Notes under the pieces: model-generated
The model's database searches: none
What the model was told of the DNA's origin: nothing
What the model saw: only the letters and a program-made list of their open reading frames with translations
Source: Escherichia phage BEU50
Sequence record: OM632671.1
Reading direction: 5' to 3' (one strand)
Length of the DNA stretch: 64,000 nucleotides
Program-made: the position numbers and the translations under genes
In this document: in pieces, positions 10,605-55,781 of the stretch
Position numbering within the stretch: the first letter of the stretch is position 1
How the letters are laid out: the number at the start of each line of letters is the position of its first letter

Positions 10605-10642
10605 TTTACAACTTGGTAGGACTATGTTATAGTAGTCCTACC
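10604..10642 (+). promoter_or_regulatory. early promoter inside 9-bp perfect inverted repeat
   Basis: GTTTAC 10604-10609; GGTAGGACT (10615-10623) / AGTCCTACC (10634-10642). Confidence 0.5.
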
Positions 10643-10661
10643 AAAACAAATGGAGAACAAA

Positions 10662-15475: not shown

Positions 15476-15510
15476 GTTTACAAGGTCTATGGTTATGTTA
15501 TTATAGACCT
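15476..15510 (+). promoter_or_regulatory. early promoter inside 8-bp inverted repeat
   Basis: GTTTAC 15476-15481; AGGTCTAT / ATAGACCT; TATTAT 15499-15504. Confidence 0.5.
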
Positions 15511-18194: not shown

Positions 18195-19145
18195 ATGACA
18201 CGTTCACATTACATTGAATACTTTGCAGGTCTTATCGCTAACGTTCATGCCCAACGTGCTTCTGGTTCATTAGGATTTGATGTTCCACACCGAGATGTAG
18301 TAAGTGGTATTCTTCGAGATTTTGGTACATACATAGGCCAAGAAAATCATATCTGTAAAGATACTCAAAATGCGTATTCTCATTCGTTAGGGACGTTGCT
18401 TCAATGGTTCAAACGTTCTCGTTTATTATCTTCTACTGTAGCTCGCGATAACATTAAAAACTTTATGAAGCCGAGCTTTATTAAATCTGTGACATCTAAA
18501 ACCGATTTGGTTGAATTCACTATTGTTAATGATGTTAAAAAGACTCATTTGGCTGATTGGTTAACTACCATTCCTGAAACTAAATTTGCTGATAAATTTG
18601 CTTGTGAATTCAATAACCAAGTGAATATGCTTTTTAAACATTCTCGTAAATTATTCACAGGCGGCGATGATCGTACAAATAAAGTTCATGCTAAAGATTG
18701 GGTTACTGCAGTGTTCAAACCAACCGGTAATGGTACCGCATCATTATCAATTGATATTCAGGTTCCTTATTATTACTCACGTAATCTCGGCACCATGAAA
18801 GCTGAAGAAATTAAGAAGCACAATAAAACCATTCGTTCGCTGTCTTATAAACTTCGCATGATGTTAAGAATCATGGACGTGGTAGAAATGTATGATGAAA
18901 CCGAAGATAATGGTTCAATGTTATACAGTTCTCGCATTCAAATTAAGTTGAAGAACCCTAACGAGTATAAGCCTAAGCCTATTAAAGAGCCTAAAGCAGA
19001 AAAAGTTGATAACTTAAGAGAAGAACGCGAATATCTCAAATCTCGTCTGAAAGAAGTCGAAGCCCAGATTGCAGAACAAACTAAATCATTAAAAGCTCTG
19101 AATGCAAAAGCGGATGGTTTACGAAATGCCATTGAGGTTTTATAA
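18195..19145 (+). CDS. hypothetical protein with C-terminal coiled coil (316 aa)
   Basis: Own promoter and SD. Confidence 0.55.
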   Translation: MTRSHYIEYFAGLIANVHAQRASGSLGFDVPHRDVVSGILRDFGTYIGQENHICKDTQNAYSHSLGTLLQWFKRSRLLSSTVARDNIKNFMKPSFIKSVTSKTDLVEFTIVNDVKKTHLADWLTTIPETKFADKFACEFNNQVNMLFKHSRKLFTGGDDRTNKVHAKDWVTAVFKPTGNGTASLSIDIQVPYYYSRNLGTMKAEEIKKHNKTIRSLSYKLRMMLRIMDVVEMYDETEDNGSMLYSSRIQIKLKNPNEYKPKPIKEPKAEKVDNLREEREYLKSRLKEVEAQIAEQTKSLKALNAKADGLRNAIEVL

Positions 19146-44915: not shown

Positions 44916-45632
44916 ATGGGAAAACATAACACAATGAAATATATCAAAGCCGCAGATTTTCAAGCCGCATTTAAAGCAGTCAATCGTGAAATTTTAGAAA
45001 ACCCGGAATTCGTAACTGATTCTCGTATTGGGCGTTGTAATGAAATTGGGTCTATGACAGTAGTTGTTGACACTCCATCATCATTCAAAATGACCGACCC
45101 ACGTATTAACCGCATCTCTTATGAATATGCCGAAGACTTCTGGAAGTTTATGATTTCTGGTGGTACCAACGCAGAAGAAGCGTTTAAGGCATATCCTAAT
45201 GTCGCTAAATTTATTTCTAAACCAAAATCAGATGTTTTGCCGGCGAACTTCAACACTTTCTATGGTCCTCGCATTGCGGCCCAATTACCAGCTCTTCTAA
45301 AAGAACTTAAAGAGAAGCCTAACTCTCGAAGAGTTGTGTTCCAAATTCTAGAAAGTTCTGATCAGGCTTTGCTTGATTCAGACGAAACGCTTGAATATCC
45401 ATGTACTGACTCAGTGACTTATTATATTCGTGATGGTAAGCTTTATACCCACTGTCATATGCGTTCTCAGAACTGTGCTGTTGTTATGCAGTTGGATTTT
45501 TATCTCCAAGGAAAATTACTTCATTATATCGCTAACGAATGTGGTGTAGAAGTTGGTGATTATACTCATACCATGGTAAGTGCCCATGTGTTTGAACGTG
45601 ATTTTGATTATGTTAAAGGATTCCTTGACTAA
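44916..45632 (+). CDS. 42: thymidylate-synthase-family deoxypyrimidylate hydroxymethylase (gene 42-like, divergent)
   Basis: PNSRRVVFQI, CTDSVTYYIRDGKLYTHCHMRSQN and SAHVFERDF parallel T4 gp42/ThyA catalytic regions, with low overall similarity to T4 gp42 as I recall it. Confidence 0.65.
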   Translation: MGKHNTMKYIKAADFQAAFKAVNREILENPEFVTDSRIGRCNEIGSMTVVVDTPSSFKMTDPRINRISYEYAEDFWKFMISGGTNAEEAFKAYPNVAKFISKPKSDVLPANFNTFYGPRIAAQLPALLKELKEKPNSRRVVFQILESSDQALLDSDETLEYPCTDSVTYYIRDGKLYTHCHMRSQNCAVVMQLDFYLQGKLLHYIANECGVEVGDYTHTMVSAHVFERDFDYVKGFLD

Positions 45633-46531
45633 TGGCTATTTTCCGCGTACCTATTTTGAGTATGCGGTCTTATGAAACTGGACAGTATGCCATCCTTAAG
45701 GATGGCAACTTCCAACTTCATTTGCACCGTGCTAATCCAGGTGATGTGATTACATATCCACGTAATGCATCCGATATTAAAGAATGTGAACGTCTTTTCC
45801 CAGAATTTAAGTTTGTTCCATTATGGTATAAAGATAACGCGTATAACACTCGTAAATATTTCTGGTCTGAAAATGAATTTGTGGTTGATTCATTAATCGC
45901 TTATTATGATTGTGATTTTCTAATCACAGATATCACTGGATACGACGGCGCTTTTGATGTAGAATTCAATTTCAATATCACTGCAGACCCTAATAAACCA
46001 CGTTTTTATATTGACGAATTCTTAAAAACCGACATGTTGTCGGTTAATCGTTCAATCCAAACAACTGTGTTGAATAAACGTCAAAAGGAAGTGCTGGTTA
46101 ACGCAGGTGCAGATGGTAATAAGATTATCATAACCCAGAAAGTTATACGTCCTTCCATCATGCAGCGTCTTGTAGGTGATTTAGCTCCTATTCATCTAGA
46201 TGGTATTTTTCATCCATTTCGAATTAGTGACCCGTGCTATCGGTTTGAACAAGTGGTTGAATGTGCAATTCAATTAGGCCAACCGCTTTATATAACCGAT
46301 CCAAATAATAGCTTCGACAGAAATAAGTATCCTGAAGAAGCGCTGATTCGAATTTTTAAACCAACTAAAACTGAGTACTATCAAATTCTTAAAGGACGTC
46401 CGAAGATTCAATATTTCGAAAATCCTGAAGAAGTATTCCATCCAGGTCTTGGTGAGTTCATCTACTTTAATGCTTTAATTTCTTCACCGTATAATATACC
46501 TAAATACGAAGATGTCGTAATCGAGGAATAA
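45632..46531 (+). CDS. hypothetical protein in the beta-glucosyltransferase position (299 aa); candidate DNA sugar transferase
   Basis: No recognisable motif; placement between gene 42 and uvsX only. Confidence 0.45.
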   Translation: MAIFRVPILSMRSYETGQYAILKDGNFQLHLHRANPGDVITYPRNASDIKECERLFPEFKFVPLWYKDNAYNTRKYFWSENEFVVDSLIAYYDCDFLITDITGYDGAFDVEFNFNITADPNKPRFYIDEFLKTDMLSVNRSIQTTVLNKRQKEVLVNAGADGNKIIITQKVIRPSIMQRLVGDLAPIHLDGIFHPFRISDPCYRFEQVVECAIQLGQPLYITDPNNSFDRNKYPEEALIRIFKPTKTEYYQILKGRPKIQYFENPEEVFHPGLGEFIYFNALISSPYNIPKYEDVVIEE

Positions 46532-50138: not shown

Positions 50139-50144
50139 TAAAAA

Positions 50145-50164
50145 GGAGACTTCGGTCTCCTTTC
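50145..50164 (+). terminator. rho-independent terminator (UUCG tetraloop)
   Basis: GGAGAC-ttcg-GTCTCC then TTTC. Confidence 0.55.
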
Positions 50165-50167
50165 GGG

Positions 50168-50197
50168 GTTTACATCTTCCTCTAGGCATGATATGAT
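50168..50197 (+). promoter_or_regulatory. early promoter
   Basis: GTTTAC 50168-50173, TATGAT 50192-50197. Confidence 0.45.
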
Positions 50198-51913: not shown

Positions 51914-51948
51914 GTTTACATTATAGATGGACTATAGTATAGTAGTCC
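51914..51948 (+). promoter_or_regulatory. early promoter with inverted repeat
   Basis: GTTTAC 51914-51919; GGACTA / TAGTCC arms. Confidence 0.45.
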
Positions 51949-52267: not shown

Positions 52268-52918
52268 ATGATTTATTATATGCACAAAAATGCGCCATTT
52301 AAATATGGTAAATTTCCTAATGCACAATGTTATAATATAACGCCGAATGAAAATAATAACGGATACCATCTCGGTGTAATTTTTGTAATTGTTAAAGATA
52401 ACGAAATCGTTGCCTGGGCAGATTTTAAAGGTACAACATATGACGTTAATCCTGTGCCTTTCACATATTACAATATAATGGATTTGGCATATGATTATAA
52501 TTGGTTTAATCATGACACGTTGGCTCATATTGAAGGTGTAGGATTTGACATCTCTTATTCTAGTTATTCATTATGTCCTATGAGCCGAGCTCACGGTAAA
52601 GATGCATCATATCTTTCAATTCGGAAACGTGTAAACTTCAAACGTAGTACAGAGTATGTTGGTGGACTCTTTGTTAAAGATAATAAAATAACCCGTATTA
52701 GTTATCCTCTAAGTGTAGGCCAAAAAGATGTTGATGTTGATTTGGACTTAACTGAAAATAACATTAATCGTATTGCTTCTGTATATTTTGATATCGATGA
52801 AAAAATTGTAGTGTGTGGATATGAATTACCACCTGAAGAAAAGGCTGAAGCAATTGAAGTCGAATTAGAAATTTCTGTTGATGACCAAATATTTAATGCA
52901 TTTATGAATCGAGGTTAA
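52268..52918 (+). CDS. hypothetical protein (216 aa)
   Basis: ATG after AGGTGA; ORF-track start is GTG. Confidence 0.5.
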   Translation: MIYYMHKNAPFKYGKFPNAQCYNITPNENNNGYHLGVIFVIVKDNEIVAWADFKGTTYDVNPVPFTYYNIMDLAYDYNWFNHDTLAHIEGVGFDISYSSYSLCPMSRAHGKDASYLSIRKRVNFKRSTEYVGGLFVKDNKITRISYPLSVGQKDVDVDLDLTENNINRIASVYFDIDEKIVVCGYELPPEEKAEAIEVELEISVDDQIFNAFMNRG

Positions 52919-52919
52919 A

Positions 52920-53117
52920 ATGACTACTGCAATTTGCACTGGTTCTAAAATTAGTGTTTTTACAAGTTTTGAAGATTATGAAGTTGTTTCAAAACACCAA
53001 TGCCATATTAGCGTAAAAGCTAATGACGGTGTAATTTGGAATATTCCACAGTATGAAGGCACTACATATGAAGTCACAGATATAAATGGTGACAAAGCGA
53101 TCTTTGTAATTGATTAA
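52920..53117 (+). CDS. hypothetical protein (65 aa)
   Basis: ORF track. Confidence 0.4.
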   Translation: MTTAICTGSKISVFTSFEDYEVVSKHQCHISVKANDGVIWNIPQYEGTTYEVTDINGDKAIFVID

Positions 53118-53136
53118 ATATACTCAGGAGGTACCT

Positions 53137-53604
53137 ATGGGTATTATTAACACTGCAATAGATTCTGTTTATGCATATAAGTTTATTCGACTAATGCAAA
53201 AACCTTTTACCGAATGGAAAGCATACGAAGCCAAAATCATCGATGAACGTGGAAGTGTTCTTAAACGTCCTTCTACTCCCGAAGAAAAAGCGGCGTATAC
53301 ACCTTTTCATGCTTCAGTTCGTTCAATGAAGCGAATGATGAGCACTGTTCCGGGTCTTAATGGAATGGCCTCAATGATGTCTGCCTGGAGTGCTGTAGCT
53401 TCACGCTATAACATTACGGAAGAACAACAGAAAGAAATATTTAAAGAACTCCCTTTATTTGAGGATATGGTTGCTGGTGATTCAGGCGGCAGTCCTCAAG
53501 CTATTGCATCAGGAACAACTACAGGTGCAGTCGTAAATAAAGGTCCAGACCAAATTCCTTCCAAGAAAAGAAAGCGAATTAAAGTAAATATTAATAAGTT
53601 GTGA
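53137..53604 (+). CDS. hypothetical protein (155 aa)
   Basis: ATG after CAGGAGG. Confidence 0.5.
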   Translation: MGIINTAIDSVYAYKFIRLMQKPFTEWKAYEAKIIDERGSVLKRPSTPEEKAAYTPFHASVRSMKRMMSTVPGLNGMASMMSAWSAVASRYNITEEQQKEIFKELPLFEDMVAGDSGGSPQAIASGTTTGAVVNKGPDQIPSKKRKRIKVNINKL

Positions 53605-53610
53605 TATGAT

Positions 53611-53632
53611 GGCCTTAAATTAATTTAAGGCC
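53611..53632 (+). promoter_or_regulatory. perfect 22-bp palindrome upstream of gene 61
   Basis: GGCCTTAAATTAATTTAAGGCC. Confidence 0.4.
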
Positions 53633-53645
53633 TCTGGAGAATACT

Positions 53646-54668
53646 ATGGCTGAATGGATAGATAATGAATTTGCTTATCGTGCGTTTTCTCACCTCCCTC
53701 GTTTTAGACAAATCAATAATTCAAGCACATTTAAATTAACGTTTCGTTGTCCAGTTTGTGGCGACTCTCAGACAGATGCAATGAAAGCTCGCGGTTGGTA
53801 TTATGGCGGTACTCCTGGTAATGTACATTGCTATAACTGTCAATACCACAATACAATTTCCGGATACTTAAAAGAGTATGATGAAGAGCTTTATCGCGAA
53901 TATCTAATGGAAGTTCGTAAAGAAAAAGCTAGAATGGAACCAAAGATTGAAAAGGTTCCTGAAGCTAAGCCAGAGCCAGAGAAAAAGACTATAAATTCTT
54001 TGCCGTCTTGTTCTCGTCTGGACAAGTTGCCTGAAGAGCATCCTATTGTGAAATATGTTAAGTCTCGGTGTATTCCTAAAGAATCATGGAACAGATTATG
54101 GTTCACATTAGAATGGCCCAAATTGGTCAACAAGATTCAACCTGGTACGTATAAGAAAGAGATTCCAGAACCACGTTTAGTGATTCCTATTTTTAATAAA
54201 GATGGGAAGGCCGAGTCATTCCAAGGACGTGCACTTCGTAAAGATGCTCCTCAGAAATATATCACTATTAAAGCGTTTGAGTCTGCAACAAAAATTTATG
54301 GTGTTGAACGTGTTAAGGAAGGAGACGTCTGGGTAATGGAAGGCCCTATTGATAGTTTATTCATACCCAATGCAATCGCTATTACAGGCGGCTCAATAGA
54401 TTTAGATGTGGTACCATTTAAAGAACGTCGGGTATGGGTAATGGATAATGAACCTAGGCATCCGGATACTATAGCTCGCATGAAGCGATTAGTTGATGCA
54501 GGCGAACGTGTCATGTTCTGGGATCGAGCTCCATGGAGATCAAAGGATGTGAATGATATGGTAATGAAAGAAAATGCAACACCACAAGAAATTTTAGAAT
54601 ATATGAAACAGAATATTTCAAGTGGGTTGCATGCTAAAATGAGATTATCTCGTTATTCGAAGATTTAA
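53646..54668 (+). CDS. 61: DNA primase gp61
   Basis: Zn-ribbon FRCPVCGD...HCYNCQYH; strong match to T4 gp61 throughout. Confidence 0.95.
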   Translation: MAEWIDNEFAYRAFSHLPRFRQINNSSTFKLTFRCPVCGDSQTDAMKARGWYYGGTPGNVHCYNCQYHNTISGYLKEYDEELYREYLMEVRKEKARMEPKIEKVPEAKPEPEKKTINSLPSCSRLDKLPEEHPIVKYVKSRCIPKESWNRLWFTLEWPKLVNKIQPGTYKKEIPEPRLVIPIFNKDGKAESFQGRALRKDAPQKYITIKAFESATKIYGVERVKEGDVWVMEGPIDSLFIPNAIAITGGSIDLDVVPFKERRVWVMDNEPRHPDTIARMKRLVDAGERVMFWDRAPWRSKDVNDMVMKENATPQEILEYMKQNISSGLHAKMRLSRYSKI

Positions 54669-55745: not shown

Positions 55746-55753
55746 ATAATTTA

Positions 55754-55781
55754 AGGAATCCTTCGGGATTCCTTTTTTTTT
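55754..55781 (+). terminator. rho-independent terminator (UUCG tetraloop)
   Basis: AGGAATCC-ttcg-GGATTCCT followed by nine T. Confidence 0.75.

Follow-up and report, generated by a model that had tools for sequence, protein, structure and literature searches.

A conserved hairpin and an adjoining promoter-like box at the start of the primase gene 61 of Escherichia phage BEU50 and related T4-type phages

Introduction

Replication in T4-type phages needs the primase at the right time and in small amounts, and in T4 itself the supply is attributed to read-through and to the MotA-dependent promoter P61. In Escherichia coli, the T1 intrinsic terminator is located between rpsU and the primase gene dnaG. 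Promoters of the TGn/-10 type need no contact with a -35 element.

The closest described arrangement in T4-like phages is the promoter-early stem-loop (PeSL) cassette, whose stem-loop often overlaps the -10 element (PMC2839356, PMC4122927). The stem-loop of these cassettes is read as a terminator or attenuator of upstream transcription. The cassettes have -35 and -10 elements at about 17-bp spacing and an AT-rich region upstream, and they occur as dispersed repeats in hyperplastic regions flanking variable ORFs. In the hairpins of T4 genes e, soc and I-TevI, the Shine-Dalgarno (SD) sequence or AUG is sequestered in the read-through RNA, while transcripts from the internal late promoter (TATAAATA) lack the 5' strand of the structure (PMC3014915). 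The start site of T4 P61 is at position 19122 (Table 1, PMC2988021). TGn/-10 promoters are immune to AsiA (PMC2988021), so that a promoter of this type could be used during the whole prereplicative period with no need of MotA. In the literature searched, we found no description of a natural MotA-independent TGn/-10 promoter class in T4-type phages, no prior description of the 61.1-61 junction, and no start-site or 3'-end data for phages carrying the element analyzed here.

Materials and Methods

The window, i.e., the whole stretch of DNA analyzed, comprises 64,000 nt of Escherichia phage BEU50 (OM632671.1; one strand, 5' to 3'). Junctions upstream of gene 61 were gathered from annotated phage records and, by searching with an alignment of gp61, from 44 loci of viral metagenomes; the alignment-based search was needed, as a single-protein search of viral contigs yielded only two near-identical loci. 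With MAFFT, the stems of distant lineages fell out of register in the hairpin alignments, and pair counts were therefore made in Python on an alignment anchored at the stem base.

Results and Discussion

Genomic context of gene 61

The window derives from an RB69-like Mosigvirus; in this region, identity is 99.6% with Escherichia phage NRG-P0074 and 98.6% with RB69. The gene order, 41 ... dmd, 61.4, imm.1, imm, sp, 61.2, ORF033c, 61.1, 61, is as in RB69, and the order from 61.1 to 61 is identical in T4. Gene 61 (53646-54668, plus strand) encodes a DNA primase of 340 aa; its region has 98.6-99.6% DNA identity to records annotated as RB69-type DNA primase, and the product has a match to the Pfam family DNAG_N, below the cutoff. 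Upstream of it lies a 61.1-like ORF (53110-53604, plus strand) of 164 aa from a TTG or 155 aa from the ATG at 53137. The encoded protein is 56% identical to the annotated 61.1 of an Acinetobacter phage; comparison with Pfam assigned it to no family. In the window and most relatives the 61.1-like sequence is one ORF of 155-164 aa, and the RB69 reference splits it into two annotated ORFs, ORF032c and 61.1. T4 retains just the last 54 aa of the protein, the end of 61.2 being joined almost directly to this remnant; the loci compared with the window in this respect were L001 4238-4704 and L005 1967-2131.

A possible middle-mode promoter, homologous to T4 P61, was found by sequence comparison at the end of gene 61.2 (52895-52921, plus strand), about 720 nt upstream. 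It consists of aaTGCATtt, a 14-nt spacer and TAAAAT, compared with aaTGCTTtt ... TAATAT in T4; as the core of the MotA box has one mismatch, activity of this promoter in BEU50 is uncertain. To judge from its sequence, it is a likely source of read-through transcripts carrying the hairpin described below. Another possible source is the nearest canonical early promoter upstream, TTTACA-17-TATAGT, identified by a promoter scan before sp (51915-51943, plus strand), whose -10 is overlapped by a hairpin of its own (51929-51948). A complementary distribution of T4 P61 and the gene 61 element was also considered, and is weakened by the retention of the P61 homologue in the window.

Palindrome and layout of the junction

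The sequence GGCCTTAAATTAATTTAAGGCC at 53611-53632 equals its own reverse complement and, as the first-pass annotation had it, forms a perfect 22-bp palindrome with 13 nt between its end and the ATG of gene 61 (53646). None of the phage records compared has an annotation at this position. Within the window no other perfect palindrome is as long. Perfect palindromes of at least 22 bp arose in 4 of 100 dinucleotide-preserving shuffles of the whole 64 kb, so length by itself is marginal evidence, and the case for more than chance rests on comparison with relatives. The second-longest perfect palindrome of the window, 20 bp (TGCCATCCTTAAGGATGGCA, 45688-45707), is inside a 299-aa ORF without a Pfam family (45632-46531), just downstream of a thymidylate-synthase-family, gene 42-like ORF.

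The palindrome belongs to a compact series of features on the plus strand. The TGA stop codon of 61.1 (53602-53604) is followed by the hexamer TATGAT (53605-53610), which comparison of variants identifies as -10-like (family consensus TATAAT) and which directly abuts the stem; the TG of the stop codon fills the TGn position of an extended -10. Then come the 5' arm of the hairpin, GGCCTTAAA (53611-53619), with the conserved core GGCCTTA, the loop TTAA (53620-53623), which among relatives varies freely in length and sequence, and the 3' arm, TTTAAGGCC (53624-53632). The first two G of the 5' arm also occupy the discriminator position after the hexamer. The predicted transcription start region (53616-53618) would be within the 5' arm, with T53616 as -1 and A53617 as +1; the spacing rule behind this prediction is established knowledge on sigma-70 promoters. 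Three nucleotides separate the end of the stem from the gene 61 SD sequence GGAG (53636-53639; context GGAGAAUA), which is predicted to be mostly unpaired. The key features lie outside the palindrome to which the first-pass annotation was confined; they are the hexamer (53605-53610) and the TG of the stop codon (53602-53603). The fusion of the invariant hexamer to the stem was missed there, as were the T-tract in distant relatives and the lack of a perfect palindrome in RB69.

In RNA form, the palindrome gives a 9-bp stem with a 4-nt loop and four G-C pairs at the base (-10.6 kcal/mol). None of 300 shuffles of the window junction was as stable as the observed hairpin, and the surrounding 111-nt region folds with z = -3.6. 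The hairpin has the stable, G+C-rich stem-loop of an intrinsic terminator, and a U/T-tract directly 3' of the stem is absent, the 8 nt there being TCTGGAGA with only two T. The terminator scan of the window did not call it, and the earlier opinion that a simple terminator was unlikely holds for BEU50. A T-tract is absent from the minus strand at the palindrome as well, so that a minus-strand terminator role is not indicated. A search of Rfam gave no family at the gathering score, the best match being the histone 3' stem-loop (15.9 bits vs 34). Elsewhere in the window, a perfect stem-loop after a soc-like ORF (AAGGAATCCttcgGGATTCCTT, 55753-55774), with a T-tract on the plus strand and an A/T-rich tail on the minus strand, is annotated as a terminator in NRG-P0074; it is a clear canonical terminator, unlike the gene 61 hairpin.

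Hairpin in related phages

A hairpin was found at the identical position in 16 distinct sequence variants representing at least nine genera. Those with both hexamer and hairpin are Mosig-, Karam-, Jiaoda-, Dhaka-, Gelderland-, Gapriver-, Kanagawa-, Lazarus- and Tulanevirus, nine named genera that fall in Tevenvirinae, Twarogvirinae and Tulanevirus. Both features are absent from Tequatrovirus, Slopekvirus and Krischvirus; in T4, the stop codon of 61.1 is followed by 2 nt and then the ATG. As far as the sequences compared go, the distribution is far wider than RB69, and T4 is the exception lacking the element, which is probably why it has been undescribed so far.

Perfect 22-bp symmetry is limited to the window, NRG-P0074 and a20. 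RB69 has a 20-nt version, GGCCTTA-AATTAA-TAAGGCC, without the perfect 22-bp palindrome, and most other Mosigviruses have GGCCTTA-TTAATT-TAAGGCC. The palindrome of the window is the union of these two forms, which indicates that the loop and the upper end of the stem can change freely. The kept feature, to judge from these forms, is a 7-bp core stem GGCCUUA/UAAGGCC, extended to 9 bp in BEU50. Conservation in relatives, by which the palindrome was to be judged, is thus found for the hairpin in at least nine genera, and does not extend to the perfect symmetry.

The stem is GGCCTTA/TAAGGCC in Mosig-, Karam-, Jiaoda- and Gelderlandvirus, GGCTCTA/TAGAGCC in Dhakavirus and L042, GGCTCTC/GAGAGCC in Kanagawavirus, GGGTCTC/GAGGCCC in L030, GGTCC/GGACC or GGGCC in Gaprivervirus, GGGAC/GTCCC in L045, GGAACC/GGTTCC in Lazarusvirus, GGAGC/GCTCC in L047, GGCCC/GGGCC in L051 and GGGGC/GCCCC in Tulanevirus. 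Across the 16 variants of the stem-base-anchored alignment, pairs 1 and 2 are invariant G-C, and pairs 3, 4 and 5 are represented by five, five and two canonical pair types with zero mismatches, a 100% pairing that is partly by construction because the arms were picked by a hairpin search; a shuffle control was therefore added. Per lineage, 0-3 of 300 junction shuffles matched the observed hairpin energy, the lineages being related to one another. When the 3' partner was shifted by 1, 2 or 3 nt, pairing was 61, 31 and 19%, respectively. The arms of the maximal stem are 3 to 7 nt apart across lineages, and those of the GGCCTTA/TAAGGCC core 4, 6 or 8 nt, with 6 vs 8 nt within Mosigvirus alone; the loop or upper stem may be GAAA, UUAAUU, AAUUAA, UCA or UCCG. 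A role as a replication-origin unwinding element was rejected, as the AT-rich center is not conserved (GAAA loop in Karamvirus). By the pattern of these replacements, the hairpin is under selection for pairing, not for sequence.

A functionless chance palindrome in AT-rich intergenic DNA, for which the 4 of 100 window shuffles could be cited, is refuted by the compensatory changes over at least nine genera and by the junction shuffle controls, and its probability is practically nil. The same comparisons bear on the protein-binding operator put forward in the first-pass annotation, that is, a palindromic DNA site for a dimeric protein, placed across the point where the gene 61 transcription unit begins. 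BEU50 offers a perfect 22-bp dyad for such a protein, which would overlap the start site if the hexamer is a promoter; however, RB69 and most Mosigviruses lack perfect symmetry, the core arms may be 4, 6 or 8 bp apart, and in other genera the half-sites are replaced (GGCCTTA, GGCTCTA, GGTCC, GGAACC, GGGAC, GGAGC) with the pairing kept. Since arm spacing and half-site both change while pairing stays, a DNA operator is disfavored, and we consider it very improbable.

In Kanagawavirus, Lazarusvirus, L030, L045, L047 and L051 the stem is followed by a T-tract, and the unit resembles a normal intrinsic terminator; in several of these lineages the AAT of the hexamer pairs with an ATT 3' of the stem. 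No T-tract follows the stem in the window or in Karam-, Jiaoda-, Dhaka-, Gelderland- and Gaprivervirus. The element could thus be an attenuator or terminator only, which cuts read-through from the strong early genes and keeps the primase scarce, the hexamer being incidental. The stem and T-tract at the same place in the former lineages, the strong early promoters upstream in the window, and the parallel with the T1 terminator before dnaG in the rpsU-dnaG-rpoD operon of E. coli all agree with this explanation. Yet the T-tract-less stem of the latter lineages is still maintained by compensatory change, and the stronger conservation of the hexamer than of the stem, described below, would go unexplained; we regard attenuation as the sole role as unlikely, while giving it some weight.

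In one relative, Klebsiella phage vB_KpnM_5N (L064 2337-3030), a homing endonuclease gene occupies the exact boundary between gene 61 and its hexamer-hairpin-SD leader, so that the endonuclease takes over the leader and gene 61 gains a new SD sequence. Similar ORF ends are present upstream of gene 61 in L027 and L052.

Hexamer adjoining the hairpin

Among 33 junctions, the hexamer is TATAAT in 20, TAAAAT in six and TATGAT, as in the window (5/6 match to TATAAT), in four. Within the 16 distinct variants, no change is seen at positions 1, 2 and 5, and 15 have T at position 6; the differences are confined to positions 3-4, which in the -10 box of sigma-70 promoters are the least constrained. Conservation of the hexamer even exceeds that of the stem. 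Directly 5' of it, TGA is found in 21 of the 33 junctions, giving TGnTATAAT, and directly 3' of it GG is found in 31. Six bases past the hexamer every variant (17/17) has a pyrimidine, and one base further on 12/17 have an A. The hexamer is retained wherever the upstream stop codon falls; Marfavirus has it without any hairpin, and in Tulanevirus the hexamer-hairpin unit is present though the upstream gene is unrelated to 61.1. Escherichia phage mogra (L060) has the hexamer TAAGAT, which matches TATAAT at four of six positions (still T1, A2, A5 and T6), together with an intact hairpin.

In the window, TGaTATGAT at 53602-53610 agrees with the TGn/-10 sequence, with A2 and T6 of the hexamer in place. 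A -35 element was found in none of the lineages scored (best match 2-4 of 6), and no MotA box (TGCTT core near -30, 11-13 bp from the -10) was found at the required distance from the hexamer. The late promoter consensus TATAAATA is not matched either, the window having TATGATGG and relatives TATAATGG. Readings of the hexamer as part of a MotA-dependent or late promoter were therefore rejected. For an extended -10 promoter with a G-rich discriminator and a Y(-1)R(+1) start, sigma-70 recognition predicts just the pattern seen in the variants; an AU-rich RNA motif of arbitrary kind would have no use for it. A mini-ORF starting at the ATG formed by the hexamer and the following G (MALN* in the window) was rejected, since this ATG is missing in Marfavirus and L047, an SD sequence is lacking, and neither the length nor the stop position is conserved.

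At the RNA level, the unit might serve processing or stability and contain no promoter: UAUAAU would be an RNase E-type entry site, and the hairpin would protect the 5' end of the gene 61 mRNA or the 3' end of the upstream RNA. The direct contact between a single-stranded, AU-rich hexamer and a stable stem, with no nucleotide in between in any lineage, points this way, as do the lack of a U-tract after the window hairpin and the wide processing of T4 mRNAs by RNases E and G (PMC3014915). Nevertheless, Marfavirus retains TGATATAAT without a hairpin, and an RNase site provides no reason for the detailed match to a sigma-70 promoter, with TG before, GG after and Y-A at the start distance. Processing without a promoter is thus rather improbable in our estimation, though worth keeping in mind.

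The comparison of lineages shows that the hexamer, the hairpin and their geometry are conserved and that both parts are under selection; from the same patterns we infer promoter activity, its start site and the role of the hairpin in read-through RNA.

Translation of gene 61 and RNA-binding proteins

The SD sequence and AUG of gene 61 lie outside the stem, and the predicted probability of the SD being unpaired is 0.76, or about 70% when both RNA forms, with and without the hairpin, are considered. For the start codon the probability is 0.26 in the window and 0.01-0.18 in L017, Dhakavirus and Tulanevirus. The region of the stop codon and hexamer can pair with the gene 61 start region at 53598-53652 and at the equivalent places in L008, L017 and L055. 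Conserved occlusion of the start codon was rejected, as among 22 junctions tested it is strong in Dhakavirus, L017 and Tulanevirus, weak in the window, and absent in Jiaoda-, Gelderland-, Gapriver- and Lazarusvirus; to judge from the folding predictions, start-codon pairing may influence translation of read-through RNA in particular lineages. The first-pass interpretation is supported in part: the element is conserved, looks functional and acts as a hairpin, but a translational control hairpin that masks the ribosome-binding site is not supported, with SD and AUG outside the stem and start pairing not conserved.

An RNA operator beside the ribosome-binding site, bound by a translational repressor such as RegA, gp61 or another phage RNA-binding protein, is a related explanation. 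Such operators are present in T4-type phages for genes 43 and 32 and for RegA targets, and the hairpin ends 3 nt before the SD sequence; moreover, RB69 RegA selects UAA-rich RNA (PMC3014915), and the stem top in the window is UAA-rich. On the other hand, RegA sites are described as unstructured (PMC3014915), the loop and upper stem vary freely, so that no recognition surface is conserved beyond the GG/CC base, and SD and AUG are predicted to be accessible with or without the hairpin. We hold this operator to be quite improbable.

The SD context GGAGAAUAcuA (53636-53646) agrees at 9 of 11 positions, the first eight and the last, with GG*AGRAYARAA, the consensus of strong RegB sites, which are unpaired and situated in the initiation regions of early genes. 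This RegB-like context is not conserved in Jiaoda-, Dhaka- and Gaprivervirus; GGAGAAUA is also found in Karam- and Gelderlandvirus, L017, L021 and L036. If RegB were to cut at 53636-53639, the upstream RNA would acquire a 3' end 5 nt beyond the hairpin.

Comparison with known promoter and stem-loop systems

Like PeSL cassettes, the gene 61 unit joins, in intergenic DNA, a promoter box and a stable stem-loop with an SD sequence and the next start codon, within the range of about 40-100 bp. It differs in lacking a -35 element at about 17-bp spacing and, since coding sequence lies directly upstream, an AT-rich UP region in intergenic DNA, and in having the hexamer 5' of the stem, not inside or after it, with no U-tract in the BEU50 lineage. 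Furthermore, it is single and position-fixed before a core gene across genera, whereas PeSL cassettes are dispersed and flank ORFans: the intergenic hexamer-hairpin of the gene 61 type is present in one copy in 64 kb, both strands considered. A dispersed repeat family was rejected, as other position-checked hexamer-hairpin sites in the window are situated inside ORFs. PeSL architecture itself appears to be common in the BEU50 genome, and the window has canonical examples, e.g., 51915-51948. PeSL-like hairpins span the spacer or -10 of canonical early promoters, with a GTTTACA -35 just 5', or lie just 5' of the -35; they were found at 202-225, 10613-10644, 15483-15510, 51929-51948 and 50142-50163, the last one before a -35 at 50169.

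The putative gene 61 promoter resembles an extended -10 sigma-70 promoter in having TGnTATGAT without a -35, GG after it and a pyrimidine-A at the start distance; a difference is that the TG here comes from the stop codon and is missing where the stop is TAA. With the T4 e, soc and I-TevI hairpins the unit shares that transcripts from its predicted promoter would lack the 5' strand of the read-through structure. In those genes, however, SD or AUG is sequestered and the internal promoter is late, whereas in gene 61 neither SD nor start codon is paired within the hairpin and the box is sigma-70-like. As with E. coli T1, a stem-loop just upstream of the primase gene would limit read-through, and the relatives with a T-tract fit this well; in the window there is no T-tract, and there is no homology to T1. 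T4 P61 is likewise a dedicated promoter for gene 61 in a T-even phage, but it depends on a MotA box and lies about 160 nt upstream in T4, which is without the hexamer-hairpin unit.

Possible mode of action and significance

The reading we put forward, in which our confidence is evenly poised, is that the palindrome is the local DNA form of an RNA hairpin joined to a -35-less, extended -10-type promoter-like box for sigma-70. The junction would then be composite, the read-through RNA carrying the hairpin, the predicted promoter starting within the 5' arm and the gene 61 mRNA being hairpin-free, a proposal that in our opinion could equally hold or fail. Transcripts from the upstream early and middle promoters would contain both arms, and the hairpin would fold directly behind the stop codon of 61.1. 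The U-tract that follows the hairpin in distant relatives would bring about termination of read-through; as this tract is gone in the BEU50 lineage, the hairpin there would be at most a weak read-through attenuator or a 3'-exonuclease barrier for the upstream message. RNA polymerase would also use the -10 box and begin some 7 nt beyond it, near A53617; because this start is within the 5' arm, the transcripts would have no hairpin and a short open leader with the SD sequence. As no -35 contact is needed, the promoter would stay active after AsiA remodels sigma-70, without MotA, and the primase would thereby get its own mRNA supply.

Some observations weigh on the other side of this promoter-hairpin reading. 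The hexamer departs from TATAAT at one position in the window and at two in phage mogra. Since the P61 homologue and canonical early promoters lie upstream in the window, gene 61 has no obvious need of its own promoter. Moreover, without a U-tract, sequence alone gives no function for the hairpin in the BEU50 lineage.

A broader formulation is tentative, and we lean slightly against it: a position-fixed "promoter inside a terminator hairpin" for primase in much of Straboviridae, with a -35-less TGnTATAAT-GG that is MotA-independent and AsiA-insensitive and whose start falls in the 5' arm, while read-through RNA coming from the variable region upstream would be folded or terminated. If true, T4-type phages would have a fourth prereplicative transcription route, in addition to the early, the MotA-dependent middle and the read-through routes.

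The gene 61 unit is a variant of the promoter/stem-loop composites already known in T4-like phages. Unlike the model phage T4, most of the other T4-like genera have a strongly conserved signal of a different kind where gene 61 begins. If the hexamer is an active -35-independent promoter, a replication gene would be transcribed in a MotA-independent and AsiA-immune manner, the unit would exemplify how a gene can naturally be shielded, in little space, from transcription coming from upstream, and genome annotation of T4-type phages should include the signal. If it is not a promoter, the conserved hairpin without a U-tract would be a clean natural system for studying intercistronic stems and the fate of phage mRNA.
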